A DNA stretch of 62,784 nt from Patescibacteria group bacterium (GTDB lineage Bacteria > Patescibacteriota > Minisyncoccia > 2-02-FULL-40-12 > GWA2-44-9). The stretch is taken from assembly GCA_038064455.1 (NCBI GenBank), contig JBBTTB010000011.1, positions 1 to 62,784 on the forward strand. The letters are read 5' to 3'. A model generated the notes under the pieces. It was not told where the DNA came from, ran no database searches, and was given only the letters and a program-made list of their open reading frames with translations. Shown piece by piece: positions 7,401 through 61,302 of this stretch. The position numbers were made by a program, and so were the translations under genes. Position 1 is the stretch's first letter, and each line of letters begins with the position of its first letter.

Positions 7401-7714
7401 CACAGCTCGCACAAGAACGTGTCATTCCGATCAAAAACATTGTGCCACGCGTCACGCATTCATTCGCTATTGGAGGTATAGTGACTCGGGTGCAAAAGAT
7501 TGTTACAAAAACTGGAAAGCCGATGGCCTTTCTAGAGCTTGAAGATCTCACGGGAAAAATGGAAGCGGTGGTATTCCCAACAGTGCTGGCAAAGTTTCAA
7601 GACATCTGCACCGAGAACCACATTCTCGTTGCGCAGGGCAAGGTGAATGAACGCGATGGACGCGTTTCATTCCTCTGCGATTCATTAAAGTCGCTCGCAG
7701 AGCTTGGAAAATAA
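4496..7714 (+). CDS. dnaE: DNA polymerase III alpha subunit
   Basis: FTHLHTHSHYSLLDG PHP domain, GPGRGSAAGS, MPDIDLDF, YAFNRSH and C-terminal OB fold; ATG at 4496. Confidence 0.98.
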   Translation: MRFTHLHTHSHYSLLDGLSKVDAIVSRVKEAGMDSVAITDHGVMYGAIEFYKKATKAGVKPIIGCEMYITSGSRHDKRAGIDDQRYHLILLAETNEGYQNLIKLVTAAHLEGFYYKPRIDKEILRQHSKGLIGLSACLAGEISRALTGNDYPAACAKAREYEDIFGKGNFFIELQQHTSIPDQNMVTPQLVRLARDLNIPMVATQDSHYTHHHDQEAHDILLAVQTGNKLDDKDRFSMNQDDFSLLTAEEMREKFLPLGEDVVQAAFENTAQIADRCSLTIEIGKTQLPSFPLPDGYTDTFAYLSELVAQGVRRRFGETERADVTERITYEMGVIKETGFASYFLIVQDFVNWAKRQGIIVGPGRGSAAGSLVAYVLSITNIDPLHYNLLFERFLNPARISMPDIDLDFADHRRDEVLHYVSEKYGKDHVAQIITFGTMAARGSIRDTGRALGLSYDFCDRVAKMIPFNPNAGGDKTGQLAKALESVAELKEAYDKDPDIKRLIDSAAKLEGVARHASTHACAVVITPKPLTEYLPLQQGTNEGDIITQYEMHAVEDLGLLKMDFLGLANLTIIEHALTMIKERHGVTIDIDALPLDDAKAFRLLQEAKTTGVFQLESAGMKRYLKELRPTTVEDIIAMCALYRPGPMDLIPDYINRKHGRSKVVYLHPALESILKNTYGIMVYQEQLMAAVRALAGFSLAEADIMRKAVGKKIKSLLDEQEGKFKDGCARVGTPKDVADTFWGLVEPFNRYAFNRSHAACYAVIAYQTAYLKANFPAEFMASFMNSETGDVERIAFLIDECRSMKIDVLPPDVNQSGERFAVVSDTPPAIRFGLTAIKNVGEHAVQALIAERAKSGPFTSVADFVTRIPAKDLNKKSLESLIKSGALDAFGERSALLASMDNLLSYAREHQKNASSGQTSLFGEHTATALPPVSLAKAEPATTWSRLSWEKELLGLYVSEHPLDSFKTQLAQERVIPIKNIVPRVTHSFAIGGIVTRVQKIVTKTGKPMAFLELEDLTGKMEAVVFPTVLAKFQDICTENHILVAQGKVNERDGRVSFLCDSLKSLAELGK

Positions 7715-7764
7715 AAGAGCCGGCGACACCCTGGGGTATCTCCGGCCCGGAAAGAACTGGGCTC

Positions 7765-7941
7765 CTAGTGCTGGCAGCCCTGGTGCGGCGGGGCGCACGG
7801 CTGCCCGCGCGGAACGCCCCCCTCCTGCATGATGTCCCTAGCGAGATCGCGCAGGAGCTTTGCCACTTCGGCGCGGCGCACGCCCATCTCAAGCGCTTCA
7901 CTGGCAGTGGCGCGGAATCGAGCCTCGATTTCGTTCATCAT
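7765..7941 (-). CDS. Small hypothetical protein (58 aa), paralog of 7951..8202
   Basis: Not in the ORF track. AGGAGG 5 nt before ATG; MMNEIEARFRATASEALEMGVRRAEVAKLLRDLARD aligns with the upstream neighbour; GC hairpin follows (~7712-7748). Confidence 0.65.
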   Translation of the reverse strand: MMNEIEARFRATASEALEMGVRRAEVAKLLRDLARDIMQEGGVPRGQPCAPPHQGCQH

Positions 7942-7950
7942 CCCGTCCTC

Positions 7951-8202
7951 CTATCCCACGCCGTTGAGTGCCGTCAGGCGCCGTGTCGAATCCGGCATGA
8001 GACGCGGCACTGTGCCAGTTCGCAGATGCGCCGCTCGCATGGAGTGGTCCTCACCACACACTTCGAGCTCAGCAGAGGCAAGGGCCCTTGCCGAAATGAA
8101 GCGCAGCTCACTGGTCATCTCGTGTCGCGGCGCGCCTGACTTATGTTGCTCGCGGAGGAACTCCACCGCAAGCACCCGAAACTTTTTCTCGATCTCCGTC
8201 AC
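7951..8202 (-). CDS. Small hypothetical protein (83 aa)
   Basis: AAGGAGG before GTG; near-consensus promoter upstream. Confidence 0.7.
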   Translation of the reverse strand: MTEIEKKFRVLAVEFLREQHKSGAPRHEMTSELRFISARALASAELEVCGEDHSMRAAHLRTGTVPRLMPDSTRRLTALNGVG

Positions 8203-8234
8203 TGACCCTCCTTGATGTAACGACGAGAGAGGTC

Positions 8235-8263
8235 ATTATAATACAGTTTCCCGTTTGAGTCAA
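8235..8263 (-). promoter_or_regulatory. Sigma70 promoter TTGACT-N17-TATAAT for the 8202/7941 cassette
   Basis: Direct consensus match with 17-nt spacer. Confidence 0.8.
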
Positions 8264-8305
8264 AACCTTTCATTTGCCACCATTATTCGGTATTCTACAG
8301 AAACT

Positions 8306-12848: not shown

Positions 12849-13493
12849 TTACGCCACGCATAGCGGAGAGAACTTGTGGTGCACGCGAGCGAGAATCTCG
12901 TGGTGGATTTCTTCGACGCTTTTCACTCCATCGTCAACGATGGCAGTGCAGTTTGGAGAGCAGGTGATCCACTCCCTGAACCCCTCATGCACGCGATGGT
13001 GGAACGCGAGCTCCTCCTGCTCAAGGCGGTCCAGCTTACCACCGCGCGCAATCGCGCGACGCATGCCTTCTTCAGGATCGATCAGGATGACGATCTGGAG
13101 ATCCGGCATCAGCCCGCCAGTCGCGAGCTTGATCGCCTGCATTCGCACAGCGCGATCGCTCATATCCCGAGCCACGAGCTGATAGGCAAACGTGGAGCCG
13201 ACGTAGCGATCGCTCACCACCCAGTCACCACGCTGGAGCGCTGGCTGTACGATCTCGCGAACGTGTTGGGCCCTGTCAGCAAGGAAGAGAAAGAACTCGG
13301 CGTCGGGATACAGTATGGTGTCCCGCGGAGCAAGTAACACCTCGCGAACTCCTCGGCCAACCGCGGTCCTCGCACCTGGCTCTTTCGTGAGCACGACGTT
13401 ACGCCCGTAAAAACCCGAGAGAACCGAGGCAAGGCGACGCGCTTGAGTGGTCTTGCCAGATCCCTCCATCCCTTCGAATGTGATAAACGGCAT
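12849..13493 (-). CDS. tmk: Thymidylate kinase
   Basis: FITFEGMEGSGKTTQ, EPG, DRAQH, SDRY..ST.AYQ, PDL; strong SD GGGGGAGG and promoter TTGCCT-N17-TAGACT. Confidence 0.95.
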   Translation of the reverse strand: MPFITFEGMEGSGKTTQARRLASVLSGFYGRNVVLTKEPGARTAVGRGVREVLLAPRDTILYPDAEFFLFLADRAQHVREIVQPALQRGDWVVSDRYVGSTFAYQLVARDMSDRAVRMQAIKLATGGLMPDLQIVILIDPEEGMRRAIARGGKLDRLEQEELAFHHRVHEGFREWITCSPNCTAIVDDGVKSVEEIHHEILARVHHKFSPLCVA

Positions 13494-13622
13494 GCGCGCC
13501 TCCCCCGTAAAGAACGACGCCCCTCTGGGCGTCATTCAGTCTAATTGAGATGTGAGAAGAAGGCAACCTTACTTCACTTCGGAGGAGCGACAAATAGTCT
13601 ATCTCCCCGCCGAGAAAAAAAT

Positions 13623-14081
13623 CTATTTTAAAAGATACTCAAAATAATCGCTACCCCAAGCCAAAATAGTCCCGCCTGGTTTCAATAACTTTTCCGATTT
13701 TTCTTTAAATTTTACATACTCTCCTAAAAACTTGGATGAAATATCCGGCCAAATATCTCCTATTATACAATCATATTTCTTATCTTCCGATAAATCATAG
13801 AAATCAGATATCGTCACGTTGCCGTGTATTTGGCCGAGCTCTTTCATTTTTTCTATCACGTCGCCAGATTTTTCAACGGTATTTATTGATTTGACCTTGT
13901 TATTCTTTAGCAAGAATTCTTGTACAATCCCAAGCCCATAACCAGCAACCAAAACATCACCGAACGACTTGGTGGCTAAATCCATCTGCAGGCCCCTCTC
14001 TTGTACGGTGTCCCACATCCACAAATAGCCATCGACATACATAAACCTGTCTCGGTTATGAGTTAATATTTCTACGGACAT
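13623..14081 (-). CDS. Class I SAM-dependent methyltransferase / spermidine synthase-like protein
   Basis: DVLVAGYGLG motif I, TVEKS, YDCIIGD; visibly AT-rich relative to flanks. Confidence 0.65.
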   Translation of the reverse strand: MSVEILTHNRDRFMYVDGYLWMWDTVQERGLQMDLATKSFGDVLVAGYGLGIVQEFLLKNNKVKSINTVEKSGDVIEKMKELGQIHGNVTISDFYDLSEDKKYDCIIGDIWPDISSKFLGEYVKFKEKSEKLLKPGGTILAWGSDYFEYLLK

Positions 14082-14103: not shown

Positions 14104-14526
14104 TTACTTCACCTCTATGCCCATAGAGCGGGCGGTGCCTTCCATGATCTTCATTGCAGCCTCTACATCGTTTGCATTGAGATCCTGCATCTTCTTCTCG
14201 GCGATTGCTCGTACTTGTGCCTTAGTGACGGAACCAACTTTCTTCTTATTCGGTTCGCCTGAACCCTTTTCGAGGCCTGCGGCTACCTGAAGAAGATAGG
14301 CTGCTGGCGGAGTTTTAAACTCAAGAGAGAATGAACGGTCATCGTAGATAGTAACAATGACTGGCGTGACCTCACCCGGACGATCTTTCGTTGCGTCATT
14401 AAACTGCAGAACAAATTGCTGTAAGTTAATACCGGTAGGACCAAGTGCCGTACCTACTGGAGGCGCTGGCGTTGCGCGGCCACCGGGGATCTGAAGTTTT
14501 GCGACTGCTTTGATATTCTTTGCCAT
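14104..14526 (-). CDS. rplK: 50S ribosomal protein L11
   Basis: [25 protein letters not shown]. Confidence 0.98.
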
Positions 14527-14589
14527 GTATACGTGCTTTGCGCGGGAGAAGCGTCACCGCACTAAAGCGATAAGCCAAACGAGTATATA

Positions 14590-15135
14590 CTACAACTTCT
14601 TCATCTGCAAGAAGTCAAGCTCCACGGGCGTTTCGCGACCAAAGATCGTTACTAATACTTTGACGCGACCGCGCTCTGGATCAACCTCTGCGATTTTACC
14701 ATCGAAGTCCTTGAAGGGGCCGTCAGTGATTTTCACACGCTCCCCAACTGCAATGTCTACTTGGTATGAAGGCTCCTTCGCGCCAGAGCGGGCAAGGAGA
14801 TCGTTCACTTCCGACGCAGAGAGTGGCGTTGGCACCGTGCCAGCACCGATAAACCCAGTCACATTTGGCGTGTTGCGCACCACGTACCACGATGCATCGT
14901 TAACGAGCATTTCTACCAGTACATAGCCAGGAAAGATTTTTTCTTCGATTGTTTCGCGTTTGCCGTTACGAATGCGGATCTTCTTCTCTTTTGGCACGAG
15001 AATGTTAAAAATCTGGTCTTCAAAACCAAGCGTCTCCACGCGCTGCTTTAAGCTACGAGAGACGTTATCTTCGTAGCCAGAGTATGTATGAATGGCGTAC
15101 CAGCGACGTTCTTCAATGTTTGCTTGCTTTGCCAT
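14590..15135 (-). CDS. nusG: Transcription termination/antitermination factor NusG
   Basis: WYAIHTYSGYE, FPGYVLV, KOW domain with IFGRETPVEL. Confidence 0.98.
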   Translation of the reverse strand: MAKQANIEERRWYAIHTYSGYEDNVSRSLKQRVETLGFEDQIFNILVPKEKKIRIRNGKRETIEEKIFPGYVLVEMLVNDASWYVVRNTPNVTGFIGAGTVPTPLSASEVNDLLARSGAKEPSYQVDIAVGERVKITDGPFKDFDGKIAEVDPERGRVKVLVTIFGRETPVELDFLQMKKL

Positions 15136-15138
15136 AGA

Positions 15139-15312
15139 TTAAGAAACGATAAGCGTAAGGATATACGCGAAAAGCGCATCCAAAACGCCAAGATAGGCAG
15201 CCATAACGATGGTGATCGCAACAACAACACCCGTATAGCGGATGACTTGTGCGCGATTTGGCCAACTCACTTTTGCTAACTCTGTGCGTACTTCTTGTAA
15301 AAAGGTAGTCAT
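15139..15312 (-). CDS. secE: Preprotein translocase subunit SecE
   Basis: 57 aa, not in the ORF track: FLQEVRTELAKVSWP plus a TM helix, directly upstream of nusG. Confidence 0.93.
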   Translation of the reverse strand: MTTFLQEVRTELAKVSWPNRAQVIRYTGVVVAITIVMAAYLGVLDALFAYILTLIVS

Positions 15313-15390
15313 GTCGTGGTAGAGAAAAACGCCCGGGGGCGCTTACAGACGATAACGATAGCACGTCTGAAAGCGAACGTCAATTCCCTT

Positions 15391-18683
<3,293 letters not shown>

Positions 18684-18783
18684 ATACGGTAAAGAATATG
18701 TGAGAGTGTAGCACAGCGTGTTGAGCTCTGCATCTTGACCTTCGTCTGAAAAATTGGTATTCCTTTCTCTTGAAGGAGGCCAC

Positions 18784-19170
18784 ATGCAAAACGAGATCAG
18801 AGAGGGCACACGGCTCTTGGTGATCAACCCGAACATGCCCATGTTCGGCGAAGTGTTCGTCGTACGGATACTGCCGCCCGATGGCCCAGGGGTCGCTCTG
18901 TGCGTCAAAGAAGGCGCAGTAAGCAACGCTCCGATGTCGCAGTTCTTGCTGCCCAACAGTGGGCACTGGCAGATGGATGACGTCATGATCGTATCCGCAA
19001 GCCAGTTGCCACTCGATGGGAGAGCCTCGCGCGCACTCAAGAACGTACGGGCCACGCTCATCCCATGGTGGGAGGCAATCCGTGGATACGACCGATCGTC
19101 CGGAACCCTGCAGTCACGCAGAGACTACCAGCAACACATCATGCGTCTGGCGTGGAGCTGGGCCTCATGA
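18784..19170 (+). CDS. Hypothetical protein (cassette gene 1)
   Basis: AAGGAGG SD; promoter TTGACC-N17-TATTCC (18735-18763). Confidence 0.7.
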   Translation: MQNEIREGTRLLVINPNMPMFGEVFVVRILPPDGPGVALCVKEGAVSNAPMSQFLLPNSGHWQMDDVMIVSASQLPLDGRASRALKNVRATLIPWWEAIRGYDRSSGTLQSRRDYQQHIMRLAWSWAS

Positions 19171-19523
19171 GTGTGCCCCAGCAGTTCGGGATCGTCACCG
19201 ACCCCGACAACCAGCTCTTCGGGCTCTCTTGCATGATCAGCAAGGTCACGCCCGCGGGTTGGTGTACGGTGCGCATGGGTAATCTCGAGGCGCGCCTGCA
19301 GGAGCACACGTGCCTCGACACACCCGACGTACCACAGGTAATGCGTATTGCGTCGCCCGAAAATCGAGCCACGTTGATCGGGCGAGCCCTGCGCAACATG
19401 CAGGTGGCACTGCGCCACCTTGCGGCCAAGACGCGCAATCAAGACATCCCCTTCGCCGAGCGCCAGTCCGCGCGCGGCGAGTTCATGAAGATCCTCTACT
19501 CTACCACCCAAAGCACACGGTAG
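19167..19523 (+). CDS. Hypothetical protein, probable paralog of 18784..19170
   Basis: ATGA overlap with the upstream gene; shared motifs; followed by terminator GCCCCGC...GCGGGGC-T tract. Confidence 0.7.
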   Translation: MSVPQQFGIVTDPDNQLFGLSCMISKVTPAGWCTVRMGNLEARLQEHTCLDTPDVPQVMRIASPENRATLIGRALRNMQVALRHLAAKTRNQDIPFAERQSARGEFMKILYSTTQSTR

Positions 19524-19751: not shown

Positions 19752-20210
19752 CTAACTCTCGAGCTCCGGATGCCACAGAAAGTAATCGATTTCTCGCTCA
19801 CCATCCATAGTTATTGAGTGCTCACGTGGCACGCCTTCGGCGCTCATGTTGCTCACGGCCCGATCTTCGCCAACCACAAAGCCGATGTGACTGTGATGGG
19901 ATCCATCTTGGTAGGGACGCTCCTTCCAGACGATCACGCTTCCTACGCGCGGAGTGTCATTGCGCTCCCACCCAAAGTTCTGCAGATCGCGCACCGTGCC
20001 AGAAACGGTGGCATGCCGCTCCATCGCTAGCCCCCACAAAAGGAGAACTGACGAAACGAAGGTCGCGCATGCGAGATTGCCGTCATCAGCGATGTCTCGC
20101 TCAACGCCGTTAACTTCGGCGAAGAGGTTCCGGAACATATGATTCTCGCCACGGGCCGCGTTGCGGATCATGGCAAGGTAACTTTTGGTACGCAGAAGCT
20201 TTACACTCAT
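19752..20210 (-). CDS. NlpC/P60- or CHAP-like cysteine amidase domain protein
   Basis: ACATFVSSVL ... PRVGSVIVW ... HIGF ... VSN, consistent with a Cys-His-Asn triad. Confidence 0.55.
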   Translation of the reverse strand: MSVKLLRTKSYLAMIRNAARGENHMFRNLFAEVNGVERDIADDGNLACATFVSSVLLLWGLAMERHATVSGTVRDLQNFGWERNDTPRVGSVIVWKERPYQDGSHHSHIGFVVGEDRAVSNMSAEGVPREHSITMDGEREIDYFLWHPELES

Positions 20211-20294
20211 AGCCCGCATAGTACCAAAATCCTCCCCACAAGCACAAGAAAACGAAAGGCCCCCGAAACATTGAGGGCCCAGCCGCACACTCGG

Positions 20295-21173
20295 CTATCG
20301 AGTACGCGGGAGCGAGCACGCAAGCTTCACGCGATAGAATCGCGCGGCTTGCATCTGCGAATCCTGCGGGAGCGTTGTGTCTGGCCAGCGCGTTCCCGGC
20401 TCACGAAACTGCATGAGCCACAGCGCGCGCTGCTCTGCGAGGGTAAGCCCCGCATATTCCCAGCTCACTGACGTGCGTGACATGAGCCCCTCTGCGTTGT
20501 GCAGATGAGCCAAGCCAAGCACGTGCACCAGCTCGTGTACGAGCGTGTGCTCATCGAAGTATTCGGGACGAACTTCGACGAACGCCTCCTCTATTGTGTC
20601 ACCGTCCAGAAGGGTCCACGCCCACCCCGCAATGGTGTCGGGGATGTTGTGGGTGATGTAGATGTAGGCTCGCACAGCGTCTTCAGGCATTGCTTGCCCA
20701 GGTCGCCGCTCTACCAGCTTAATCCACGGCACAAATGGTTGCAGATACGCGATTGCTCGCGTGAGCGCCTTTGGATCGTGCACGGCATCCGTTGAATCCA
20801 TGAGCGAGATCACCATCACGCCCGCCGTGGGGCGCGTGAACGGCTTTCCCGCCTCGTTCCCAGCGGTGCGATAGAAAAGCTCGTGGAGCGTCATGAGCTC
20901 GTTCTCATCGCCCGTTGGAATGAGCTTCACGGTTGCACCATCCGTCGGCGCGATTGCCATGCGCGGAAGGAATCCAACCGCACTAGCGGCAAAGAAACTT
21001 TCCGCAGGAACCGCGATCTGTGCGCCAGCACCAACGACCACATCGTGCGCATCGCGCACGTACGCCGTCACACTGCCGCCCCCTCCCAAGGCAGCCGCAT
21101 CACGGAACTTGAGGGTTACGTCTTCCGCGAACGCAGAAGACGTAACGAGAACCGCGACCACGATCAAGCGCAT
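20295..21173 (-). CDS. Secreted metzincin (matrixin-like) zinc metalloprotease
   Basis: Signal peptide, HELVHVLGLAH and Met-turn GLM; GGAGG SD. Confidence 0.8.
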   Translation of the reverse strand: MRLIVVAVLVTSSAFAEDVTLKFRDAAALGGGGSVTAYVRDAHDVVVGAGAQIAVPAESFFAASAVGFLPRMAIAPTDGATVKLIPTGDENELMTLHELFYRTAGNEAGKPFTRPTAGVMVISLMDSTDAVHDPKALTRAIAYLQPFVPWIKLVERRPGQAMPEDAVRAYIYITHNIPDTIAGWAWTLLDGDTIEEAFVEVRPEYFDEHTLVHELVHVLGLAHLHNAEGLMSRTSVSWEYAGLTLAEQRALWLMQFREPGTRWPDTTLPQDSQMQAARFYRVKLACSLPRTR

Positions 21174-21347
21174 GCCTACCCGCCTCCATGCTACATATTA
21201 TGCATTAAAAACAAAGAATTGCAAGAAACATTAATACATACAGAAAAACAAAAAGAGCGTTGCGAGAGGGTAAGGATTGGGGGCCTTCTCTTGCAACGCT
21301 CAGTGGTAGAAACGGAGGATCACTCCGCGCCTACCGAGGAACAGGAA

Positions 21348-22256
21348 CTAGTGCCTCAACAACGGGCACTCGATCTCGACGACGGAGTGCGCCATCGAGA
21401 GGGCTGCAGTGACGTCCCTGTCGTTATCCGGAGCACTGGTCCCCGGACGCCGACGGAACATCATGCGGAAGACGTAGGCTTCAAATGAGGAAAAGCGATT
21501 CCCTCCCTGGCCACCAGTTACACTCATCGTATCACGGAGGTCCAAGGAGTGACCAAGGCCGAGACCGTGACCAAGCTCGTGGCACATCGCCCTCCCAGAT
21601 GCTGCAGCGAGGTCCTTGAATCGCACGCGCGTACTCGACACGATATTCCCAGTGAAAGCGTTCCCGGTAGAGCCCACCGACGCAAGCGCCGGGTCGATGA
21701 GTAGGGCGAACTGCGTGCCCGCTCCACCCACCGAAACGCTCGCCCTTTGCGTTGCTGCGGTCATCTCGCCAGCACAAGCATTGATCACGTTCATCGCCTG
21801 TGCATCTGCGGAGATTTCCGCCGACGGTGCGAGGCCAATGGCACCCGCCGCAGGGCGAGAGAGCCGTCGTCCAGGCCCCCACTCGTTGTAGACCAGCGCA
21901 TCGATGTACGCGCCAGAGACGTGGCTCGTGTCCCAAAGGTACACGTTCCAGGGGCCCTCACCCCGGTACGCCGTGTTGAAGTCGCGATGGCCGGGAGCCG
22001 AGATGTCCACCGCATCGCCCGAACGGAGCGACATGGAGACTTCGCCAGTTGAATTCGTCGTCACACGACCCGCAGGGGTCACGATCACGGCCCCAGCGAT
22101 GGGCATGTCGTCCCATCCGCTGAAAACGCGGACGGAGACAGACTGCGTGCCCGGAGTGGGCGTTGCCGTCGGCCCCGGGGTGGGACCAGACGGGCTTCCT
22201 CCCCCCCCACACGCGGCAAGCGTGAGGGGGAGGATGAGAACGAGCGCGTTGCGCAT
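21348..22256 (-). CDS. Lipoprotein metzincin (matrixin-like) zinc metalloprotease
   Basis: Lipobox LAAC, P/T linker, HELGHGLGLGH, Met-turn DTM; AAGGAGG SD. Confidence 0.82.
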   Translation of the reverse strand: MRNALVLILPLTLAACGGGGSPSGPTPGPTATPTPGTQSVSVRVFSGWDDMPIAGAVIVTPAGRVTTNSTGEVSMSLRSGDAVDISAPGHRDFNTAYRGEGPWNVYLWDTSHVSGAYIDALVYNEWGPGRRLSRPAAGAIGLAPSAEISADAQAMNVINACAGEMTAATQRASVSVGGAGTQFALLIDPALASVGSTGNAFTGNIVSSTRVRFKDLAAASGRAMCHELGHGLGLGHSLDLRDTMSVTGGQGGNRFSSFEAYVFRMMFRRRPGTSAPDNDRDVTAALSMAHSVVEIECPLLRH

Positions 22257-22423
22257 GGGATTCCCTCCTTACCGCCGTGAGGCGGAGTTGAGACAAAACC
22301 CTACTCTGATGTAATTCCTGTTGTGAGGGTACTAGATATATTATACCACAAAAAAGAGCATTGTAGCAAGATGCTCTTTTTGCACCAAAAAGCCCCATTT
22401 CTGGGGCTTTTGGATATCCACCG

Positions 22424-24626: not shown

Positions 24627-24752
24627 GTGCCTCTATTGTATCACTCTTGGTGCGCGCGCATTGCTGTTTCTGTGTGGATAAAGAAAGCCCCCAATAGGGC
24701 TTATTGACCTATCCAGTGTTTGTTGTATAATTGATTTCCTAAGGAGGTCGGC

Positions 24753-24935
24753 ATGCGAGTGAGGGCGTTCTTTCCCTGGCAGAAGAGGGATGACGTGGTG
24801 CACACAGTCGCCCGGAAGCTGGCACTGCGCCACTGGCGCCTCATGGTGCGTCACATTTCCGGGCGGAAGTGGAAGCTCGTTGCCATCGAGGCGACGAGTC
24901 TGCGCGACGCCATCATCGTTCTGCTCAAGTCGTAA
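24753..24935 (+). CDS. Small basic hypothetical protein (60 aa)
   Basis: Promoter TTGACC-N16-TATAAT (24704-24731) and AAGGAGGT SD. Confidence 0.65.
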   Translation: MRVRAFFPWQKRDDVVHTVARKLALRHWRLMVRHISGRKWKLVAIEATSLRDAIIVLLKS

Positions 24936-36336: not shown

Positions 36337-36338
36337 CC

Positions 36339-37713: not shown

Positions 37714-37798
37714 AGCTTCGTGCGGGTCTTTGCCCATCAATGGGCCATTGACACACGTGCATATTATGTTGTACAATCGTAGCTTAGGGAGGATCGAA

Positions 37799-38014: not shown

Positions 38015-38161
38015 CCCTAGCGCCCCGCACAAGAAGCTCCGCACTTCGTCTGTGCGGGGCCTCTTTATTTTTAAGAATCAAAAGAGCAGGATTCCCCACG
38101 CATCCCAGCCCATACTTGCCGTGTTTTTCTCGCAGTGCTACCGTGCCGGAAGGAGGCAACT

Positions 38162-38392: not shown

Positions 38393-38431
38393 CATCCCAG
38401 TGCCCTTCCCTTAGAGAGCGAGGTGGCGAGA

Positions 38432-38668: not shown

Positions 38669-38761
38669 CCCCCGCCCCCGCTCGTCACCGCAGACGAACG
38701 GGGGCTTCTTTTACACACCCTACGCACTGTGTTCGCAATAAATACAGTACACTAGAACGAT

Positions 38762-39178: not shown

Positions 39179-39181
39179 CCC

Positions 39182-39637: not shown

Positions 39638-39677
39638 ACAAAAACAGCGTATTGTATGCCTTCTCAAGGAGGAGGCT

Positions 39678-40145: not shown

Positions 40146-40211
40146 CTCTCTCGCCCGTCATGAGCACAGCTCGTGGCGGGCTTCGTCTTTTTTTGGTACG
40201 CTCTGGGCACC

Positions 40212-40754: not shown

Positions 40755-40812
40755 CCCCTCTTCCCTTTTTTCTCAAGGCGTGGTACACTGCGGTCCGTTC
40801 ACTTTTCCTGCA

Positions 40813-41370: not shown

Positions 41371-41557
41371 GACCAACCGGTCTCTGAAAAAGCGCGTAAA
41401 AATCACGGGCCGCAAGAAGATCCTCAAGCGCCCACCACACCAGAACCACTTCAACGCGAAGGAATCTGGCGAACGCGCACGCAACAAGAAGGGTCAGATT
41501 GCTGTGCCAAAGGAGCTCGACAAAAAGGCACGAGCACTGCTCGTCAACGAGTTTTAA
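41330..41557 (+). CDS. rpmI: 50S ribosomal protein L35
   Basis: KTNRSLKKRVKITGRKKI...NHFNAKES; lies between infC and rplT. Confidence 0.93.
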   Translation: MARHSKTNQARHSKTNRSLKKRVKITGRKKILKRPPHQNHFNAKESGERARNKKGQIAVPKELDKKARALLVNEF

Positions 41558-41566
41558 TTATTCACC

Positions 41567-41908
41567 ATGACACGCGTAAAACGAGGAGTACAACAGCATA
41601 AGCGTCGCGAACGAATCCTGAAGCAAACAAAGGGTTTTATGTGGACTCGCAAGTCCAAGATCCGCCAAGCAAAAGAGGCGCTCTTGCACGCATGGTCCCA
41701 CGCCTTCGCAGATCGCAAGAAAAAGAAGCGCACCTCACGTCGCCTGTGGCAGATCCAACTCAACGCCGCAGCCCGCGAGCAAGGCATCTCCTACTCAAAG
41801 CTGATCGCCCAACTCAAGACCGCGCAGATCGCATTGGATCGCAAAGTGCTCGCTGACATTGCCCAGAACCACCCAGAAGTATTCAACAAGGTTCTCGCAA
41901 CGAAGTAG
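41567..41908 (+). CDS. rplT: 50S ribosomal protein L20
   Basis: MTRVKRG, RRLWQIQLNAAAR, LDRKVLADIA. Confidence 0.98.
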   Translation: MTRVKRGVQQHKRRERILKQTKGFMWTRKSKIRQAKEALLHAWSHAFADRKKKKRTSRRLWQIQLNAAAREQGISYSKLIAQLKTAQIALDRKVLADIAQNHPEVFNKVLATK

Positions 41909-41912
41909 TAGC

Positions 41913-41946
41913 AACAAAAACAGCTCGAAGGGGCTGTTTTTGTTTT
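41913..41946 (+). terminator. Intrinsic terminator after rplT
   Basis: AAAAACAGCTC-GAAG-GGGCTGTTTTT. Confidence 0.8.
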
Positions 41947-41971
41947 ATCCTAACCCAGCACTATTATGGCC

Positions 41972-42000
41972 TTTACAAACAAAGCAACACTGGCTAAGAT
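41972..42000 (+). promoter_or_regulatory. Sigma70 promoter of the ncRNA-RT unit
   Basis: TTTACA-N17-TAAGAT, ~7 nt before the structured region. Confidence 0.65.
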
Positions 42001-42007
42001 CAGCGAA

Positions 42008-42272
42008 CTCCCCATGGAAACATACCTGATAGTCCCCCTCGGTCGGTAGTCTACGTTCTGTGCCCAATGTGAAATATCGCCGCGGGAACGCACTTCCCGC
42101 GATAAGCACGGTGATGGAGACAAGGCAGTCCGAGGACCGGAAGTTTCAGGTACGCTGTCAGAGTTCTGACGGCGTTGACTTAGAAGCGCAACAGGATGAA
42201 GCGTGCGCTCGCGCGACTCTCCCAACCATGGCGAGCCCGACTGTCCCCGACCAACGCTCGGCGGGGACAGTC
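42008..42272 (+). ncRNA. RT-associated structured RNA (retron msr-msd-like)
   Basis: Closing IR 42008-17/42226-35; nested stems 42023-29/42146-52, 42037-42/42130-35, 42081-88/42094-101, 42153-61/42166-74; extra hairpin 42239-42272. Confidence 0.65.
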
Positions 42273-42300
42273 ACCTTTAACCCTATCGTAAGGAGGCGGT

Positions 42301-43407
42301 ATGCAGGAAATGTCTGGCCGCTTCTTTACGAACGGCCACGAACTCACGGCTGAAGAGTACCGGGAAGCCCGTCGACGGACTCGTATCAAAAGAACGGAAA
42401 AGAGGCTTGAGCGATGTGATGGGTCGCTTGGATGGTTTGGTAAAGCGCTCGATTTGCCGATTTCTTTCGACCTCGCCGGCATGATCCGGGAGATTGAAGT
42501 CAACGGTTCCGCTGGACTATACGATGAACCGAAAGTCATCCAAAAGTCGCACGGAGGAGAGCGAATCATCATCACGCCAAAGCCCGAGCTCAAGCGCGTT
42601 CAAAGAGGAATCCATCGTCTCTTGCTTGATGTCTTCAAACGGCCACCAATAAGCTTTGGCTTCCGCGGCGGCAGTTGTTACGAAGTCGCCGAACGACATC
42701 AGGAGTTACCCTCTACGCTGAAATTCGACATCAAGGACGCGTTTTTCCAAGTGGGTTGGGCGGCAGTTCGCAAAAGTATGCTTCGAAACAGCCCCTTTCA
42801 GCGTGGCACCCAGGGCCTTTCTCACCTCGTTACGCGCTGGATCGCAAGCCTCTGCACATACCACAACCCCGTGCCACTGGTCGTGCGGGAACGATTCCCA
42901 CGCGTGACGTCGTTTCTCCCGCAAGGTTCGCCGGCAAGCCCTATCTGCTTCGATATGGCGTGCTGGCCGCTTGACGCAAAGCTCACGCACCTTGCCGAAC
43001 GCGTTGGTGGACGCGTGACACGCTACGCAGACAACTACTTTTTCAGCATGCCAACCTCTCGCGTGTCGGAGAAGCTGAGGAACATTGTCGTATACGACGC
43101 ACGCAGATACGGATTCCCCATTCACAAGATTCGTCGGGTCGCGCAAGGTGAGATGTGCCGCATACTTGGCTACAACGTTTACCAAGACCGCGTCACCAAC
43201 ACGCGCGACTTCAACCGAAACCTGCGGGGAGCCATCTACGTCCTTCGCACCCGACTCGAACGAGACCTTGAGTGGCATGACGCGTACGCGCGCGTACGCG
43301 GCTTCCTCGGCTTCGCGGTAAATACGCCGGAAGGCCTGCTCCAGGAGTACCGCCACTGTGAGCAGCTGATGCAAGAACGTTCCTCCAAGGGCGCCCAGTC
43401 AACGTGA
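42301..43407 (+). CDS. Retron-family reverse transcriptase with YADN motif
   Basis: KSHGGERII..P..ELKRVQR, FGF, KFDIKDAF, LPQGSPASP, TRYADNYFFS, ILG; AAGGAGG SD. Confidence 0.9.
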   Translation: MQEMSGRFFTNGHELTAEEYREARRRTRIKRTEKRLERCDGSLGWFGKALDLPISFDLAGMIREIEVNGSAGLYDEPKVIQKSHGGERIIITPKPELKRVQRGIHRLLLDVFKRPPISFGFRGGSCYEVAERHQELPSTLKFDIKDAFFQVGWAAVRKSMLRNSPFQRGTQGLSHLVTRWIASLCTYHNPVPLVVRERFPRVTSFLPQGSPASPICFDMACWPLDAKLTHLAERVGGRVTRYADNYFFSMPTSRVSEKLRNIVVYDARRYGFPIHKIRRVAQGEMCRILGYNVYQDRVTNTRDFNRNLRGAIYVLRTRLERDLEWHDAYARVRGFLGFAVNTPEGLLQEYRHCEQLMQERSSKGAQST

Positions 43408-43420
43408 CGGGCGCCTTTCT
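43387..43420 (+). terminator. Intrinsic terminator of the RT gene
   Basis: GGCGCCC(A)GTC-loop-GACGGGCGCC followed by TTTCT, overlapping the stop codon. Confidence 0.65.
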
Positions 43421-43506
43421 CTAATTTACCCAGACCACAGGTTCTCGCAACGAAATAAGCCTCTCACACAAATAACAACACCCGCCTCAAGCGGGTGTTG
43501 TGTTAT

Positions 43507-48201: not shown

Positions 48202-48573
48202 CTAACGAAGTGAACCGCGAGAAATAAGACTTGCGAGCGTGTTCAAGATAAGACCGATTGCTAAGATAACTGCCGCACCTTTTACGCCATTCCAGATCTG
48301 TTCCTTTGCGCCGGTTGCGCCCTTGTCATCAGGAGACATGATCCATTTGATGCCGCCAATACCGATGTAGATAACTGCCAAGATCAAACCAATCGTAAGA
48401 ATGAAGTTTGCGATCTGCTTCAAGAGATCTTCAAGCTTAGTGAGATCGAGGGTTGTTGTCGACTGGACTGGAGGGGTGGGGATGGTGATGTCTGCAGCGA
48501 GCGCCAAAGCAGGAGACACGATTGCAAGTGCCAAGAGCGTCCCGGTCAGAATCTTTTTGATGTTTTTATTCAT
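48202..48573 (-). CDS. TrbC/VirB2-like (CPR-type) pilin
   Basis: Signal peptide plus two TM helices with GGIKWI...AK..IW pattern. Confidence 0.75.
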   Translation of the reverse strand: MNKNIKKILTGTLLALAIVSPALALAADITIPTPPVQSTTTLDLTKLEDLLKQIANFILTIGLILAVIYIGIGGIKWIMSPDDKGATGAKEQIWNGVKGAAVILAIGLILNTLASLISRGSLR

Positions 48574-48614
48574 ACGCCACCCCCTTTCTAAGTATCGCGA
48601 GAAGCGATCTATAG

Positions 48615-48986
48615 TTACAATTCTTGAGTAAAGATAATGGTATCAATTGTGTTCACAATAATTCCAAAACCAAGGATAATTGCAATTCCGATAAGCGCAG
48701 CTTTTATAGTACCCTTTGCCTCATCTACCGCCTTCCCTCCTTGTGAGGTGATCCAGAGGATTGCTCCGTATGCGATGTATGCAATACCAATGACAAGTCC
48801 GATACTCAGAAGAAAGTTCACCACGTCTACAACGAGATCATAAATTTTATCAAGAGAAAGGGGCGTACCCTCTACTTCAAGAGTTCGATTAGTATTAAGT
48901 GCAGCTTGCGCTGGAAGAACAAAGACTCCCAGAGATAGTCCTACGAGCAAAACAAGTCCAATTAATTTCTTTACCATATGATTCAT
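48615..48986 (-). CDS. TrbC/VirB2-like pilin
   Basis: YGAILWITSQG...AK.TI.AALIG; start 48986 or 48977. Confidence 0.75.
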   Translation of the reverse strand: MNHMVKKLIGLVLLVGLSLGVFVLPAQAALNTNRTLEVEGTPLSLDKIYDLVVDVVNFLLSIGLVIGIAYIAYGAILWITSQGGKAVDEAKGTIKAALIGIAIILGFGIIVNTIDTIIFTQEL

Positions 48987-59250: not shown

Positions 59251-59323
59251 CGGCCCGTAGCTCAGTTGGTAGAGCAGGCGTCTTATACACGCCGGGTCCC
59301 TGGTTCGAGTCCAGGCGGGCCGA
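59251..59323 (+). tRNA. tRNA-Ile(TAT)
   Basis: Cloverleaf; anticodon arm GGCGT-CT TAT AC-ACGCC; discriminator A. Confidence 0.9.
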
Positions 59324-59383
59324 CAAAAAAGAAGACGCCCCTCGTGCAAAGCACGTGGGGCGTTTTTGCCACCGCCCGCCCCA

Positions 59384-59698
59384 TTAGGGGCCGGTCGGCG
59401 ACGGAGTGGTGGCGGGTGGCTTCGGCTTCCCGCCGCGCTTGCGACGCGGACCCCGCGCCGCGCGCTCGTCCGCCCGGCGCTTGAACTCGGCTTCCATGGC
59501 GCGCTTCACGCGCTCATCGAAGGTCGAATCCTCGAGCACTGTCCGAACCACCGCTTCGAGATCGGTCAGCGTGGGAGCGGTGGGCGACGGTGGGGACAAC
59601 GGCGTCACAGGTGCAGGGCGCGCCCTCCCACCGAAGAAGCCGAGCAGGATCAGGCCCACAGCAACCGCCTGCACGAGGATAAACTGAATTAGGCTCAT
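59384..59698 (-). CDS. Small membrane-anchored hypothetical protein (Pro-rich, basic tail)
   Basis: TTGACA-N18-TACTAT, AAGGAGG SD (GTG 59704 is an alternative start), N-terminal TM. Confidence 0.65.
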   Translation of the reverse strand: MSLIQFILVQAVAVGLILLGFFGGRARPAPVTPLSPPSPTAPTLTDLEAVVRTVLEDSTFDERVKRAMEAEFKRRADERAARGPRRKRGGKPKPPATTPSPTGP

Positions 59699-59786
59699 TT
59701 TCACTTCCCTTGTCCTCCTTGGGCCAAATAGTATCATATAAAATAGCAATCTGTCAATCTAGACTAAAAGATCCTAAAAAAGCGAA

Positions 59787-59816
59787 AAGCCTAGTAATGT
59801 CGACATTACTAGGCTT
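59787..59816 (-). terminator. Perfect 30-bp palindrome, probable terminator
   Basis: AAGCCTAGTAATGTC|GACATTACTAGGCTT followed by a T tract on the minus strand. Confidence 0.65.
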
Positions 59817-60001
59817 CGATGGCTTATCTTTTACAAGCGAGCGAGCTTGGACGTTTAAGCGCGTCGCGCTGTAGCGTTTTAGAGACTTCCCCTCTCAAGC
59901 GCGCTGCGCTACGGAGTACGAACGAAGTCGTATTGCTACCGAAGAACAGCACCGGTAGTTCTAGGGCGGTTCACGCAACGATTTCGTCACGGAGCCACTC
60001 C

Positions 60002-61204
60002 TTACTTGTTGCGCTCTTGAGCTGCGGCGAGGCGCGCCTTCACGTCCGTGATCTCGATCTGCGACGATGCCGCCGATGCATCGCCGAGCAACGCGCGGAG
60101 AGACGTGGCTTCCGCCTCATCCTTTCGTTTTGTTGCCGCCTCGAGAAGATCGAAGATCTCCTCATGGATCGGCTGGCGGGCCTCCCACGGCAGCGCCACC
60201 CGAGCAAGAGAGCGTCCAGCAAGGGACCTACGAGTTGTCAGCAGGTCTTCTTCTACCTCGGGCGCTGACCCATCCTTCATCGAGTCGACGGCGCCCTGCT
60301 GGCCTACAGACGAACTCCCGCTTGTTGCCATCTCAAGTTGAGCATCCACGGCGGTGGGGCCCTCTTCGTGGGGATCGAGTCGCTCGATCGCCGCAAGTAC
60401 GTCTGCGGAGATCGGTGCGGGAGCCACCTCTTGAGCTTCTTTCGGCGGCTCCGGCTCGCCCGACTGTGGAACCGAGAAGACGGGGAACTCTTCGGTTGTC
60501 GGCTTGCGCACCTCATCGGCGCGCAGATCTTCGTCAGTGAGCCTGCGCTCTCCACCACTTGGCCCACGCGGACCTTGTGGGGGTTCGTCGTCGTCCTCCA
60601 CCCTACCCGCTCCGCGCATGAAGACGAGGTAGGCAGCCAAACCGAGCAGGAGCGAGAGAAGCCCGGCTACGAACCACATGGGACGCGCAGTCTTTTCATC
60701 TCGACTCTCGGCAATGGCTCGATTCTGCTCGAGCGCTTGACGCGTGACTGCGCCCGCGGCCAGCTCACGCTGTGTTGCGGCGCGAGCTTGGGCCTCCAGT
60801 TGTGCAACGCGGCGCTGCAGGGGCTCGACCTTCGCAGCTACCGCCGCGTTGATCTTCTCCTGCAGAAGCCGGTCGGCTTCCGCTTTCGCCGCCTCGGCAC
60901 GCGCCTTGCGCGCCGCAGCAGCTTTTCGAATCTGCTCGGGGGTGAGTCGCTTGCGCGGCTCCTGGCCCTTGAAAACTCGAGTCGGAACCTGTTCTGCGTT
61001 CAGGATACACAGGTCGCGTTCGGCGACCTGATAGTCCTTCGAGACTCCGGCGCAGTATCGCACCGAAGCCAGGACGTCCTGCAGCCCAGCGGGCCCCAGG
61101 GCATCCAGCGGCGCCTGGGCGCGCGCCACAGGGGCGGCGACCAGGGCCAGCATCATCGCGACCATCGCGACGAGTCCGATTCTTCTCAATCTCGTCATTG
61201 TCAA
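60002..61204 (-). CDS. Hypothetical membrane protein: signal peptide, coiled coil, TM, acidic cytoplasmic tail
   Basis: 400-aa ORF with GC-rich codons, GGGGAGG SD and TTGACG -35. Confidence 0.75.
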   Translation of the reverse strand: MTMTRLRRIGLVAMVAMMLALVAAPVARAQAPLDALGPAGLQDVLASVRYCAGVSKDYQVAERDLCILNAEQVPTRVFKGQEPRKRLTPEQIRKAAAARKARAEAAKAEADRLLQEKINAAVAAKVEPLQRRVAQLEAQARAATQRELAAGAVTRQALEQNRAIAESRDEKTARPMWFVAGLLSLLLGLAAYLVFMRGAGRVEDDDEPPQGPRGPSGGERRLTDEDLRADEVRKPTTEEFPVFSVPQSGEPEPPKEAQEVAPAPISADVLAAIERLDPHEEGPTAVDAQLEMATSGSSSVGQQGAVDSMKDGSAPEVEEDLLTTRRSLAGRSLARVALPWEARQPIHEEIFDLLEAATKRKDEAEATSLRALLGDASAASSQIEITDVKARLAAAQERNK

Positions 61205-61302
61205 AGACCTCCCCTATCTCCCCCATGGAGACGGTCATGTCTTTTAACATAGAAATAGGCTAGCGTCAATGCCGCTCTCGTGCTATACTCGGTGCATCTT
61301 TT

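Follow-up and report, generated by a model that had tools for sequence, protein, structure and literature searches.

Shine-Dalgarno-led genes among a majority without the signal in a Patescibacteria genome

Two kinds of gene start in the window and its genome

The window analysed here is the whole of a 62,784-nucleotide stretch of DNA from an ultra-small groundwater bacterium of the Patescibacteria (assembly GCA_038064455.1, contig JBBTTB010000011.1). It is contig C11 of a genome of 560 kb in 13 contigs that is 94.8% complete, and it carries the core genes dnaE, thrS, gatB, gyrA/B, rpsP, rplK, rplT, rplS, infC, smpB and ftsH, several aminoacyl-tRNA synthetase genes, and a type IV secretion system (T4SS)-type pilin cluster. 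In addition, a tmRNA gene and five tRNA genes are located at 19621, 37158, 43507, 48040, 59251 and 61303. Between the core genes lie open reading frames (ORFs) whose starts follow a strong Shine-Dalgarno (SD) sequence. These SD-led genes, called cassettes below, are the subject of this report. An earlier interpretation made from the letters alone (the sequence-only reading) had listed 15 such starts and had proposed that they form a distinct gene class with a shared expression format in a genome that otherwise does without the SD.

In the following, G000 denotes the genome under study, G002 a complete genome of the same genus (615,149 bp) and G001 a further relative. The genes of G000 were called with a dicodon model that is blind to upstream sequence, which gave 535 genes (87% coding); long ORFs are terminated by all three stop codons, TGA, TAG and TAA. 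This caller overlooked eight of the 15 listed SD-led starts. The SD statistics of G000 cover the 531 genes with a usable upstream region, and SD strength is expressed as E, the pairing energy (kcal/mol) to the genome's own 16S tail, taken as 10 nt or at full length. The window is collinear with 296.9-366.9 kb of G002. Contigs of a second study span cassette/core junctions without a difference, which shows that the same sequence, junctions included, occurs in that study's samples; one such contig matches 38080-38610 without a difference. For 35300-43500, no RNA data set was listed.

Inspection of the 3' end of the 16S rRNA of G000, a check suggested in the sequence-only reading, gave GGAUCACCUCCUUUCU, an intact canonical anti-SD. 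All 15 listed starts are indeed preceded by a site of the AGGAGG, GGAGG or GAGGTG type at SD spacing (E -9.9 to -12.7). On the other hand, rpsP, rplK, rplT, rplS (E=+0.6), gyrB, thrS (E=+0.8) and ftsH, which had been named as core genes without an SD, lack one (E +0.8 to -6.2); the value of -6.2 for ftsH arises from GCGGCGG and is no true SD. The gene rpmF, named there as well, was not located. The bulk of the 531 genes lies at or below background pairing although the 16S rRNA keeps its anti-SD, and zero pairing is commoner before genes (27%) than in controls (14.5% and 19%). Values of E<=-10 were obtained for 5.3% of the 531 genes; in the controls, the shares were 1.1% (2,916 internal ATGs in frame) and 1.6% (4,999 random sites). 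Moderate SDs (-8 to -3) were rarer before the genes of G000 (128) than in mock windows placed upstream (185) or downstream (182) of the same genes (p=0.0015), whereas strong SDs (<=-9) were commoner (30 versus 7 and 11). Since moderate sites are depleted and strong sites enriched relative to the mock windows, SD strength is not unimodal; it shows two peaks genome-wide, in keeping with the sequence-only reading.

The same pattern was seen in G002, where E<=-10 was found for 5.2% of 576 genes compared with 1.2% of internal ATGs; moderate SDs were depleted (128 versus 191 and 187 in mock windows, p=0.0005), and the enrichment of strong SDs recurred. A test that depends little on annotation was also performed. 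In non-genic sequence of G000, GGAGG followed by ATG at 4-9 nt was observed 50 times against 17 expected. Of these 50 sites, 41 lead into an ORF of 45 aa or more, where chance would give 7.9 (CCTCC control, 10 against 3.8). These results confirm that the SD pattern is real, statistically solid and replicated in the sister genome.

A first format, lacking the SD, covers about nine in ten genes. Many of its first-in-unit genes look leaderless, their -10 box ending 5-9 nt ahead of the ATG, and the remainder begin in weakly folded stretches poor in G, with a pyrimidine at -1. The G content drops to 7-11% at -10 to -4 of operon-internal SD-less genes. Immediately before the start, T is found in 59% of the first-in-unit and 51% of the internal SD-less genes, and G in only 5-6%. 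Because the preference for a pyrimidine at -1 is also seen at operon-internal starts, it is not merely a transcription-start signal. A strict promoter, defined as TTGnnn-16/18-TAnnnT, was counted when it ended 4-9 nt ahead of the start. Such spacing was seen for 20 of 224 SD-less genes that are first in their unit, for 11 of 198 'internal' ones and for 10 of 2,685 controls, but for none of 58 SD-led genes, and TAnnnT alone peaks 6-8 nt before SD-less starts. The promoter geometry of SD-less first genes is thus often that of leaderless mRNAs, which suggests that these genes may be transcribed without a leader. Across 476 SD-less genes, the stretch from -20 to +40 around the start folds weakly, at -9.1 kcal/mol compared with -12.7 kcal/mol in mid-gene regions.

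The second format is led by the SD. A strong SD (E<=-9.5) precedes 27 of the 531 called genes of G000. Their GC content at third codon positions (GC3) is 0.627 versus 0.509 (p=1.7e-9), and the gap upstream of them is longer (119 versus 44 nt). In G002, 35 strong-SD genes have a GC3 of 0.639 versus 0.527 (p=5e-9). A further 31 uncalled SD-led ORFs (at least 45 aa, GC3 at least 0.6) lie in the gaps between the called genes of G000. The share of genes with a strong SD climbs with GC3, from 0-5% below 0.60 to 7 of 11 (64%) at 0.70-0.75, and several GC3-rich genes seemingly without a strong SD have mis-called starts or AAGGAG-type sites. The GC contents at the three codon positions (GC1/GC2/GC3) are 0.61/0.47/0.71 in 46 SD-led GC-rich ORFs and 0.61/0.42/0.51 in 504 SD-less genes. 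Strict promoters were found 15-60 nt upstream of 17 of the 58 SD-led genes, 10 of them in the 20-24 nt bin. With the -10 box at this distance of about 20-24 nt, the leader should measure some 14 nt, just the SD and its spacer. The start regions of 37 SD-led GC-rich genes fold more strongly than those of SD-less genes (-14.0 versus -9.1 kcal/mol, p=6.5e-10). The two formats therefore differ in composition and in start-region structure, and, as described in the next section, in conservation.

The statements of the sequence-only reading on the cassettes themselves fared unevenly. Their codons are GC-richer (GC3 0.64-0.83 at the 15 sites), and nearly all encode unknown proteins, 13 of the 15 having no Pfam family compared with 6 of 52 other window proteins (Fisher p=9e-8). 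A recognisable -35/-10 pair, attributed to most, is present at nine of the 15 (score of at least 8/12 within 150 nt), six of these lying 20-23 nt before the start, but terminators of their own, likewise attributed to most, satisfied a strict rule at only six; the word 'most' is thus reasonable for promoters and too liberal for terminators. The cassettes do occupy slots between core genes, but several of their ORFs belong to two-gene units and do not stand singly. No integrase or transposase was found among the 67 window proteins, in line with the claimed absence of mobility genes, but the ORF at 42301-43407 encodes a retron-type reverse transcriptase (RT). The SD, GC3-richness and a fixed distance between promoter and start co-occur, also in the sister genome, which bears out the proposal of a distinct class with a shared expression format. 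The 58 SD-led proteins show no mutual BLASTP match at 1e-3, and a single cassette family was ruled out on this basis. A highly conserved subgroup with native GC3 consists of the pilin gene at 48202-48573, four other small genes with the 12-mer AGAAAGGGGGTG, and rpsU.

Conservation and gene content of the SD-led loci

At 11 of the 15 window sites, G002 has a counterpart in the same slot with 42-88% identity (most 42-80%), while most core genes show 85-98%. Of 39 G002 orthologs of SD-led ORFs, 27 have retained the SD close to the aligned start, whereas only 16 of 427 SD-less genes show an SD in the ortholog within 12 codons. Five diverged small ORFs resemble G002 in their own reading frame and in no other, and these are therefore coding. 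At 4-fold sites, 0.549 of the positions differ between G000 and G002 in 442 SD-less genes, which corresponds to about 1 substitution per site, and 0.475 differ in 19 SD-led GC-rich genes. The GC content at these sites (GC4) is nevertheless alike in the two genomes, 0.683 and 0.693 in SD-led genes versus 0.517 and 0.534 in core genes, and differences from S (G or C) to W (A or T) and from W to S are balanced in SD-led genes (153 versus 163).

These findings bear on the suggestion that the cassettes were recurrently captured from one SD-using donor, possibly a host. As a recent event, such capture is not supported: the slots are shared, SD and GC4 are retained although about half of the 4-fold sites differ, two orphans have only two to three relatives among 5.8 billion proteins, of which the named ones are Patescibacteria, and the 58 proteins are mutually dissimilar. 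Of the marks of a recently acquired island, atypical composition is present (GC3 0.71 versus 0.51), but absence from the close relative is seen only for the ORFs 7765-7941, 24753-24935 and 38162-38392 and the RT, the other 11 of the 15 window sites having a counterpart in the same slot; no donor could be traced. Two further origins were tried and rejected. For a phage or defence origin, PHROGs matched only tmk, the RT and one SD-less ORF, and PADLOC matched only the RT. As for insertion beside tRNA genes, each of the six RNA genes of the window adjoins an SD-led unit, yet genome-wide this holds for only 6 of 32 (<=300 nt). Taken together, the cassettes look like a resident accessory class and not like recent imports. 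Judging from tmk and rpsU, SD-led status can be ancient and native.

Features of the window, their start signals and their counterparts in G002
Feature	Positions	Strand	Start signal	GC3	Counterpart in G002	Other evidence
rpsP, SD-less core gene	2263-2541	-	E=+0.8			Ribosomal_S16
Tandem SD-led small ORFs, 7951-8202 (83 aa, GTG start) and 7765-7941 (58 aa)	7765-8250	-	E -11.7 and -10.2; TTGACT-17-TATAAT, score 11/12, 32 nt before start	0.69 and 0.79	83-aa ORF: 43% identity, SD kept; ORF frame 47 bits, other frames <=30	No Pfam, PHROGs, NCBIfam or PADLOC match for the pair
tmk (dTMP kinase), gene 12849-13493	12849-13540	-	SD GGGGGAGG, E=-11.0	0.68 (flank GC 0.49)		Thymidylate_kin 2.9e-38; TIGR00041 148 bits (cutoff 83)
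rplK, nusG, secE, gyrB, SD-less	14104-17457	-	E=-0.3, +0.7, +0.7, +0.2			Pfam
Two-gene SD-led unit, 18784-19170 (128 aa) and 19152-19523 (123 aa)	18740-19523	+	E=-12.1	0.73, 0.81	47% and 69% identity, same slot, SD kept; frame-specific, 109 bits vs <=49
SD-led secreted metzincin-like protein, 20295-21173 (292 aa), and CHAP hydrolase, 19752-20210	19752-21215	-	E=-9.9; TTGCAA-16-CATAAT, 23 nt before start		292-aa protein: 57% identity	292-aa protein: signal peptide and HELVHVLGLAH motif, read from the sequence, no Pfam match; CHAP domain 5.8e-6 (Pfam)
SD-led matrixin-like lipoprotein, 302 aa, ORF 21348-22256	21348-22300	-	E=-11.6	0.72		Lipobox and HELGHGLGLGH motif, read from the sequence; no Pfam match
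60-aa SD-led ORF, 24753-24935	24700-24935	+	TTGACC-16-TATAAT, 11/12; -10 box ends 21 nt before ATG; E=-12.3	0.83	No match	Putative gene
85-aa SD-led ORF, 36811-37068, adjoining the tmRNA gene	36783-37110	-	E=-11.1; -10 box ends 20 nt before start		47% identity, frame-specific, SD kept	14-bp terminator 36815-36783
Complete cassette, 71-aa ORF 37799-38014	37748-38060	+	TTGACA-18-TACAAT, SD		42% identity, frame-specific, 54 bits vs <=32; SD kept as AGAGGTG	Terminator
Two SD-led small ORFs, 38162-38392 (76 aa, Cys-rich) and 38432-38668 (78 aa)	38130-38668	+	E=-12.3, -12.7		76-aa ORF: no match; 78-aa ORF: 88% identity, SD kept
Complete cassette, TTG-start 155-aa orphan, ORF 39678-40145	39627-40181	+	TGGACA-17-TATTGT, AAGGAGGAGG	0.79	70% identity, identical SD	13-bp terminator
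rplT, SD-less core gene	41567-41908	+	E=-2.5			Ribosomal_L20
Retron-type RT cassette, RT 42301-43407	41972-43501	+	Promoter-like site, 296-nt leader, SD		Not found	RVT_1 4.9e-15; NCBIfam retron St85 108 bits (cutoff 235); PADLOC retron RT models to 2e-31; terminator
T4SS-type pilin, gene 48202-48573	48202-48620	-	12-bp extended SD AGAAAGGGGGTG; E=-15.5 (10-nt tail), -20.1 (full tail)	Native	SD identical	T4SS_pilin 1.6e-7; absent from the 15 listed starts
SD-led membrane protein, 104/106 aa, ORF 59384-59704	59384-59760	-	TTGACA-18-TACTAT; E=-11.2, -10.7 (two candidate starts)	0.78-0.79	Weak frame-specific match, 42 bits vs <=34	N-terminal hydrophobic segment
SD-led protein, 398/400 aa, ORF 60002-61204	60002-61250	-	E=-11.9, -12.2		69% identity	Signal peptide, one membrane segment; local GC 0.64

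An SD-like site precedes tmk in most of 20 relatives, including GC-poor genomes in which tmk is not GC-rich. A terminator-like hairpin and GTTCTTT are located immediately before the tmk SD (13494-13540, minus strand), and GTTCTTTTT often precedes this SD across several genera. The arrangement of hairpin, GTTCTTTTT and SD may represent a read-through or attenuator-type leader. The extended SD of the pilin gene pairs with the 16S tail at 12 positions, including a single G-U pair, and the 12-mer is shared by five conserved small genes (window 48574-48590, C10:18395, C10:7715, C4:57401 and C3:2995).

The motifs read in the 292-aa and 302-aa proteins both have the form HExxHxxGxxH of a metzincin zinc site. 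The 292-aa metzincin-like protein has three relatives among 5.8 billion proteins, the named ones being Patescibacteria, and none of the PF00413 type. The 302-aa protein has seven close relatives with 58-76% identity, the two named ones being Patescibacteria/Paceibacterota; beyond a gap follow matrixin-type relatives with 25-46% identity (mostly 27-34%), most of which carry PF00413, and its nearest Atlas clusters are mostly Acidobacteriota. The 155-aa orphan has two relatives besides itself among 5.8 billion proteins and no Atlas lead (best score 0.76). The 398/400-aa protein was found in two of 41 genomes searched, its own and G002. The remaining unnamed SD-led proteins of the window are small, Cys-rich or helical. 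The 296-nt leader of the RT gene is strongly structured (minimum free energy z=-4.94 versus shuffles) and has no Rfam match, and an accessory effector gene was not identified in the cassette; the leader may be an undescribed retron non-coding RNA.

Some other features of the window are recorded here. The isoleucyl-tRNA synthetase (29533-33009, minus strand, 1158 aa) contains a His_Phos_1 domain at residues 501-665, inserted between the catalytic core and the anticodon-binding domain. A tRNA-Ile gene with the anticodon UAU lies at 59251-59324 (plus strand); such a tRNA is an uncommon bacterial way of reading AUA. No uL1 gene was found in the genome. A 139-aa ORF at 13623-14042 (minus strand), downstream of rplK in the usual place of rplA, has a PHROGs methyltransferase as its sole match and no counterpart in G002.

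rpsU and the relatives that lost the anti-SD

Ribosomal protein bS21 is encoded by rpsU, which is located at C10:22161-22430 and was found through a weak Ribosomal_S21 match. The caller overlooked it because of an in-frame TGA at codon 6. This codon is CGA in G002 and other relatives, and neither G001 nor G002 has a stop there, so that the TGA of G000 could be a nonsense mutation, a strain variant or an assembly error. If it is real, the organism would be without full-length bS21. The rpsU leader, AGAAAGGAGGT-6 nt-ATG, forms 11 consecutive pairs with the 16S tail (-17.5 kcal/mol, full tail). Among order-level relatives, which belong to four families (locus GC 0.36-0.60) and are not independent of one another, 26 of 29 have a strong SD before rpsU, as do 19 of 29 genomes of a phylum-wide sample. 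Among neighbouring ORFs (at least 120 aa, best of the first four starts), the corresponding figures were 6 of 122 and 7 of 96 (p=3e-20 and 5e-10). rpsF and rpsR are SD-less. Thirteen starts pair with the full tail more strongly than that of rpsU and about 35-60 genes are SD-led; rpsU is therefore no single outlier. The C-terminal part of the bS21 encoded here is longer, contains a conserved Tyr and a conserved Phe and, by eye, is less basic. The alignment of this bS21 to solved chains was weak (best E-value 0.0011) and extended only to about residue 60; no Flavobacterium johnsoniae chain was identified among them.

The 16S 3' ends of relatives were located with a 14-nt motif taken from the 16S gene of G000. 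Tails were readable in 21 genomes of the order (20 relatives and G000), 17 of which are canonical and four lack CCUCC. The four are G028 and G031 (family f2), G039 and G013, all metagenome-assembled genomes (MAGs) representing at most three independent losses. A strong SD of rpsU was present in 14 of 15 anti-SD-bearing genomes (only -7.0 in G010) compared with one of four anti-SD-less genomes (Fisher p ~0.016). It is missing in G028, G031 and G039 and also in G034 and G037 (same family), and G013 retains GGAGGT. In contrast to the rpsU SD, AGGAGG sites before other ORFs persist in these genomes: 17 of 20 such sites in G031 and 15 of 20 in G028 open ORFs of at least 45 aa, many of them GC3-richer than their AT-rich flanks. 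In the anti-SD-less relatives, no relocated anti-SD was found within 1.5 kb downstream of the 16S gene, and CACCTCCTT occurs elsewhere only at chance level. CsrA was considered as a reader of GGA motifs and was not found in five genomes. A conserved 7-codon ORF (MRLPMMS or MRPPMTS) was observed behind AGGAGGTCTTCCTT in G031 (L165) and G028 (L192), a site that resembles the rpsU leader of G000.

Explanations and comparison with known systems

On the evidence above, we consider it probable that two initiation formats operate side by side and that the SD-led accessory set is resident, its SD being kept by selection. The SD-led format comprises about 35-60 genes, whose mRNAs would have leaders of some 14 nt and would be initiated on the 30S subunit through conventional SD/anti-SD pairing. 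It includes two kinds of gene. One kind is a few conserved native genes, namely rpsU, tmk and the T4SS-type pilin genes. The other and larger kind consists of short, GC3-rich, fast-diverging and lineage-restricted accessory genes, such as those for the secreted metzincin-like proteases, the CHAP hydrolase unit, the retron-type RT and the Cys-rich and helical mini-proteins; these hold fixed slots between core operons, with SD and GC3 retained in the sister species. Since GC-rich start regions would presumably fold too strongly for the SD-independent route, such genes would require an SD, which selection would keep. Both this use of SD/anti-SD pairing and the leaderless transcription of the majority are proposed from sequence features.

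Several observations weigh against this interpretation. It does not account for the GC3-richness of the class: relaxed selection in fast-evolving genes was ruled out, since SD-less genes with <60% identity have a GC3 of 0.49 (n=35) and the non-genic GC of G000 is 0.50. The balanced S/W counts come from two genomes with no outgroup and are compatible with parallel decay in both lineages. Four of the 15 ORFs lack a G002 counterpart (7765-7941, 24753-24935, 38162-38392 and the RT), and the three small ones among them are putative genes. Genome-wide, a G002 counterpart exists for 17 of the 27 SD-led ORFs that were called and for 25 of the 56 that were not, compared with 430 of 508 SD-less genes, and slot content partly differs between G000 and G002. 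The starts used were those of the SD-blind caller and some are wrong (60002-61165 in place of 61198, for example). Finally, GGAGG-ATG pairs at 5-9 nt, relative to a mock spacing of 19-23 nt, are enriched with a median ratio of 1.56 in the anti-SD-less genomes (n=4; 1.27-1.76; pooled 341 versus 231, p=2e-6) and of 1.44 in the anti-SD-bearing ones (n=17; 1.02-2.03), and four orthologous G031/G028 pairs keep the AGGAGG site while the upstream sequence has diverged. Because SD-spaced sites are enriched without an anti-SD, base pairing to an anti-SD of the same cell cannot fully account for them in the lineages concerned.

An artefact, be it purine motifs arising by chance, spurious ORFs or contigs that combine two organisms, would fit the spacing test over the whole genome, which is noisy and underpowered when no non-genic filter is applied (GGAGG excess 26, CCTCC control 38), and the three small ORFs missing from G002, but it deserves next to no credence in view of the internal, random and mock controls, the replication in G002, the conservation confined to the ORF frame and the junctions confirmed by a second study. 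It is also distinctly improbable that the cassettes are foreign DNA that has not been ameliorated, either imported from one or more GC-richer SD-using donors or present as alleles repeatedly replaced from a mobile pool. A GC1/GC2/GC3 of 0.61/0.47/0.71 resembles that of genes of a genome of about 60% GC. The patchy distribution and differing slot content just described, the lack of the RT cassette in G002, the distant relatives of the matrixin-like gene outside the Candidate Phyla Radiation (CPR) and the somewhat shorter distance of SD-led ORFs to tRNA genes (Mann-Whitney U test, p=0.03) all agree with importation, which would moreover account for SDs in genomes without the anti-SD. However, slots, SD and GC4 were kept across about 1 substitution per synonymous site, and the ORFs missing from G002 are no GC-richer than the shared ones. 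The named relatives of the orphans all belong to the same lineage, PHROGs matched only tmk and the RT among SD-led genes, and the window carries no integrase. The association with tRNA genes is weak (15% versus 8% within 500 nt, p=0.13), and tmk and rpsU exhibit an old, native SD-led status.

Two further explanations concern the reader of the signal. The sequence-only reading had offered a regulon translated only when the anti-SD is exposed. In a specialised-ribosome form of this idea, bS21-replete ribosomes would hide the anti-SD, and bS21-free ribosomes would translate rpsU, as autoregulation, together with the accessory genes. We regard this as unlikely, although a good deal agrees with it: an SD-poor genome that retains the anti-SD, the depletion of moderate SDs as in Flavobacteriales, the 11-bp rpsU SD conserved in relatives but rare among their neighbouring ORFs and absent from rpsF and rpsR, the way the rpsU SD tracks the anti-SD across genomes, and a bS21 whose C-terminal part has a conserved Tyr and, by eye, is less basic, features emphasised by Jha et al. 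(PMC7797042). Against it, rpsU is neither the sole nor the strongest SD gene, unlike in Flavobacteriales; the cassette SDs persist where the anti-SD is gone and the rpsU SD is lost; the bS21 alignment stops short of mapping the Bacteroidia contacts; and a strong rpsU SD may simply mark a leadered, highly expressed monocistron. The persistence of cassette SDs therefore counts against the regulon offered earlier, while the extended rpsU SD speaks for it.

The same persistence raises the question of whether something else reads the cassette SDs, in place of or in addition to the cell's own 16S tail, a view that would call for a second decoder, a second ribosome population or messages formatted for a host; we consider this very unlikely. 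In its strict form, in which AGGAGG is read by an RNA, a protein or another cell's (host) ribosomes in place of the own 16S tail, the idea is still harder to credit. The enrichment and the conserved sites in anti-SD-less relatives that have lost the rpsU SD point towards it, as do the missing displaced anti-SD within 1.5 kb, the chance-level frequency of CACCTCCTT and a foreign-looking codon usage maintained over time. We know, however, of no precedent for the translation of one bacterium's messages in another. CsrA was not found in five genomes, several SD-led proteins have ordinary signal peptides or lipoboxes or evident roles in their own cell (pilin, tmk, bS21), a second, unassembled rRNA operon is conceivable in MAGs, and the four anti-SD-less genomes stem from at most three loss events. 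Resident SD-led genes beside an SD-less majority thus remain the interpretation that we prefer.

Why many bacteria keep an anti-SD that they hardly use is an open question, for which an experimental answer exists only for Flavobacterium (rpsU autoregulation). Patescibacteria would provide a second, unrelated phylum with an SD-poor genome and an extended rpsU SD that vanishes with the anti-SD and, beyond what is seen in Bacteroidia, with dozens of accessory genes on the same signal, tied to a distinct, stably kept codon composition. If the specialised-ribosome idea were true, such ribosomes may govern a set of genes for accessory functions or host interaction in minimal-genome bacteria. For practical purposes, gene finders miss or mis-start SD-led genes, as the eight of 15 missed by the SD-blind caller illustrate, and the SD together with GC3 offers an inexpensive marker of accessory genes in CPR genomes. 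The public annotation of one G002 ortholog is shorter, by listed length, than the ORF from the SD-led start.

Lawrence and Ochman reportedly described the amelioration of acquired genes and atypical genomic islets, and phage 'morons' are autonomous units of promoter, ORF and terminator. The cassettes are like both in being single genes or pairs with a promoter of their own, often a terminator, atypical GC and a patchy distribution between core genes. They differ in that the window has no integrases or phage genes, the donor is untraceable, and SD and GC are kept in their slots over saturated synonymous divergence. Scharff et al. (2011) are said to have found that genes without an SD have unfolded start regions. 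The present genome agrees with a structure-dependent need for the SD, since its SD-less starts are weakly folded and GC-poor and its SD-led starts strongly folded; here, however, each state characterises a gene population of its own, and these populations evolve at different rates and differ in GC3 over the whole gene. A structure-dependent SD need was also addressed in an analysis of Bacteroidetes by Accetto and Avgustin (2011; PMC3155529).

GeneMarkS-2 distinguishes a group C, with leaderless transcription plus an SD for leadered genes, from a group X with weak signals and some SD genes (PMC6028130). The genome described here resembles these dual models in its apparently leaderless first genes and SD-led leadered minority, and genes of atypical composition are modelled separately there. 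In contrast to group C, in which operon-internal genes use the SD, the operon-internal genes here are SD-less, and no link between the SD and atypical GC3 is made in the sections of PMC6028130 drawn on here. The anti-SD has been lost in about half of Parcubacteria, and the absence of uL1 overlaps with this loss (Tsurumaki et al. 2022, PMC9297842). G000 belongs to the same broad lineage and has no detectable uL1, and four of 21 tails in its order lack CCUCC; it differs in retaining the anti-SD. SD-led classes, rpsU and the persistence of SDs are not discussed in the portions of PMC9297842 used here.

The closest parallel is found in Bacteroidia. In Flavobacteriales, bS21, bS18 and bS6 together conceal the anti-SD, and it is ribosomes lacking bS21 that translate the SD-led rpsU (PMC7797042; PMC9976891; Naeem et al. 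2026, PMC13000453). The 3' tail contacts Tyr54 of bS21, Phe50, Asn56 and Lys37 of bS18 and the C-terminal helix of bS6, and a less basic bS21 C-terminus with a signature Tyr is emphasised (Jha et al. 2021, PMC7797042). McNutt et al. (2023, PMC9976891) report that moderate SDs are under-represented ahead of start codons in Flavobacteriales. As a rule, rpsU is the lone outlier in that order. No description of this pattern for CPR was found in literature searches, and neither 'Patescibacteria' nor 'CPR' occurs in the article text of PMC9976891, its supplements lying outside this statement. Like Bacteroidia, the present genome is SD-poor with a canonical anti-SD, and SD-like sequences are under-represented at its ordinary starts. 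As in the Flavobacteriales type, rpsU has an unusually long SD, rpsF and rpsR have none, and the rpsU SD co-varies with the anti-SD across genomes. On the other hand, the phylum is different, dozens more genes have a strong SD, 13 of them exceeding that of rpsU, and the SD-led class is tied to GC3-rich codons. The C-terminus of bS21 is also different and longer here, and sequestration of the 16S tail would be supposed in Patescibacteria by analogy with its demonstrated counterpart in Flavobacteriales.

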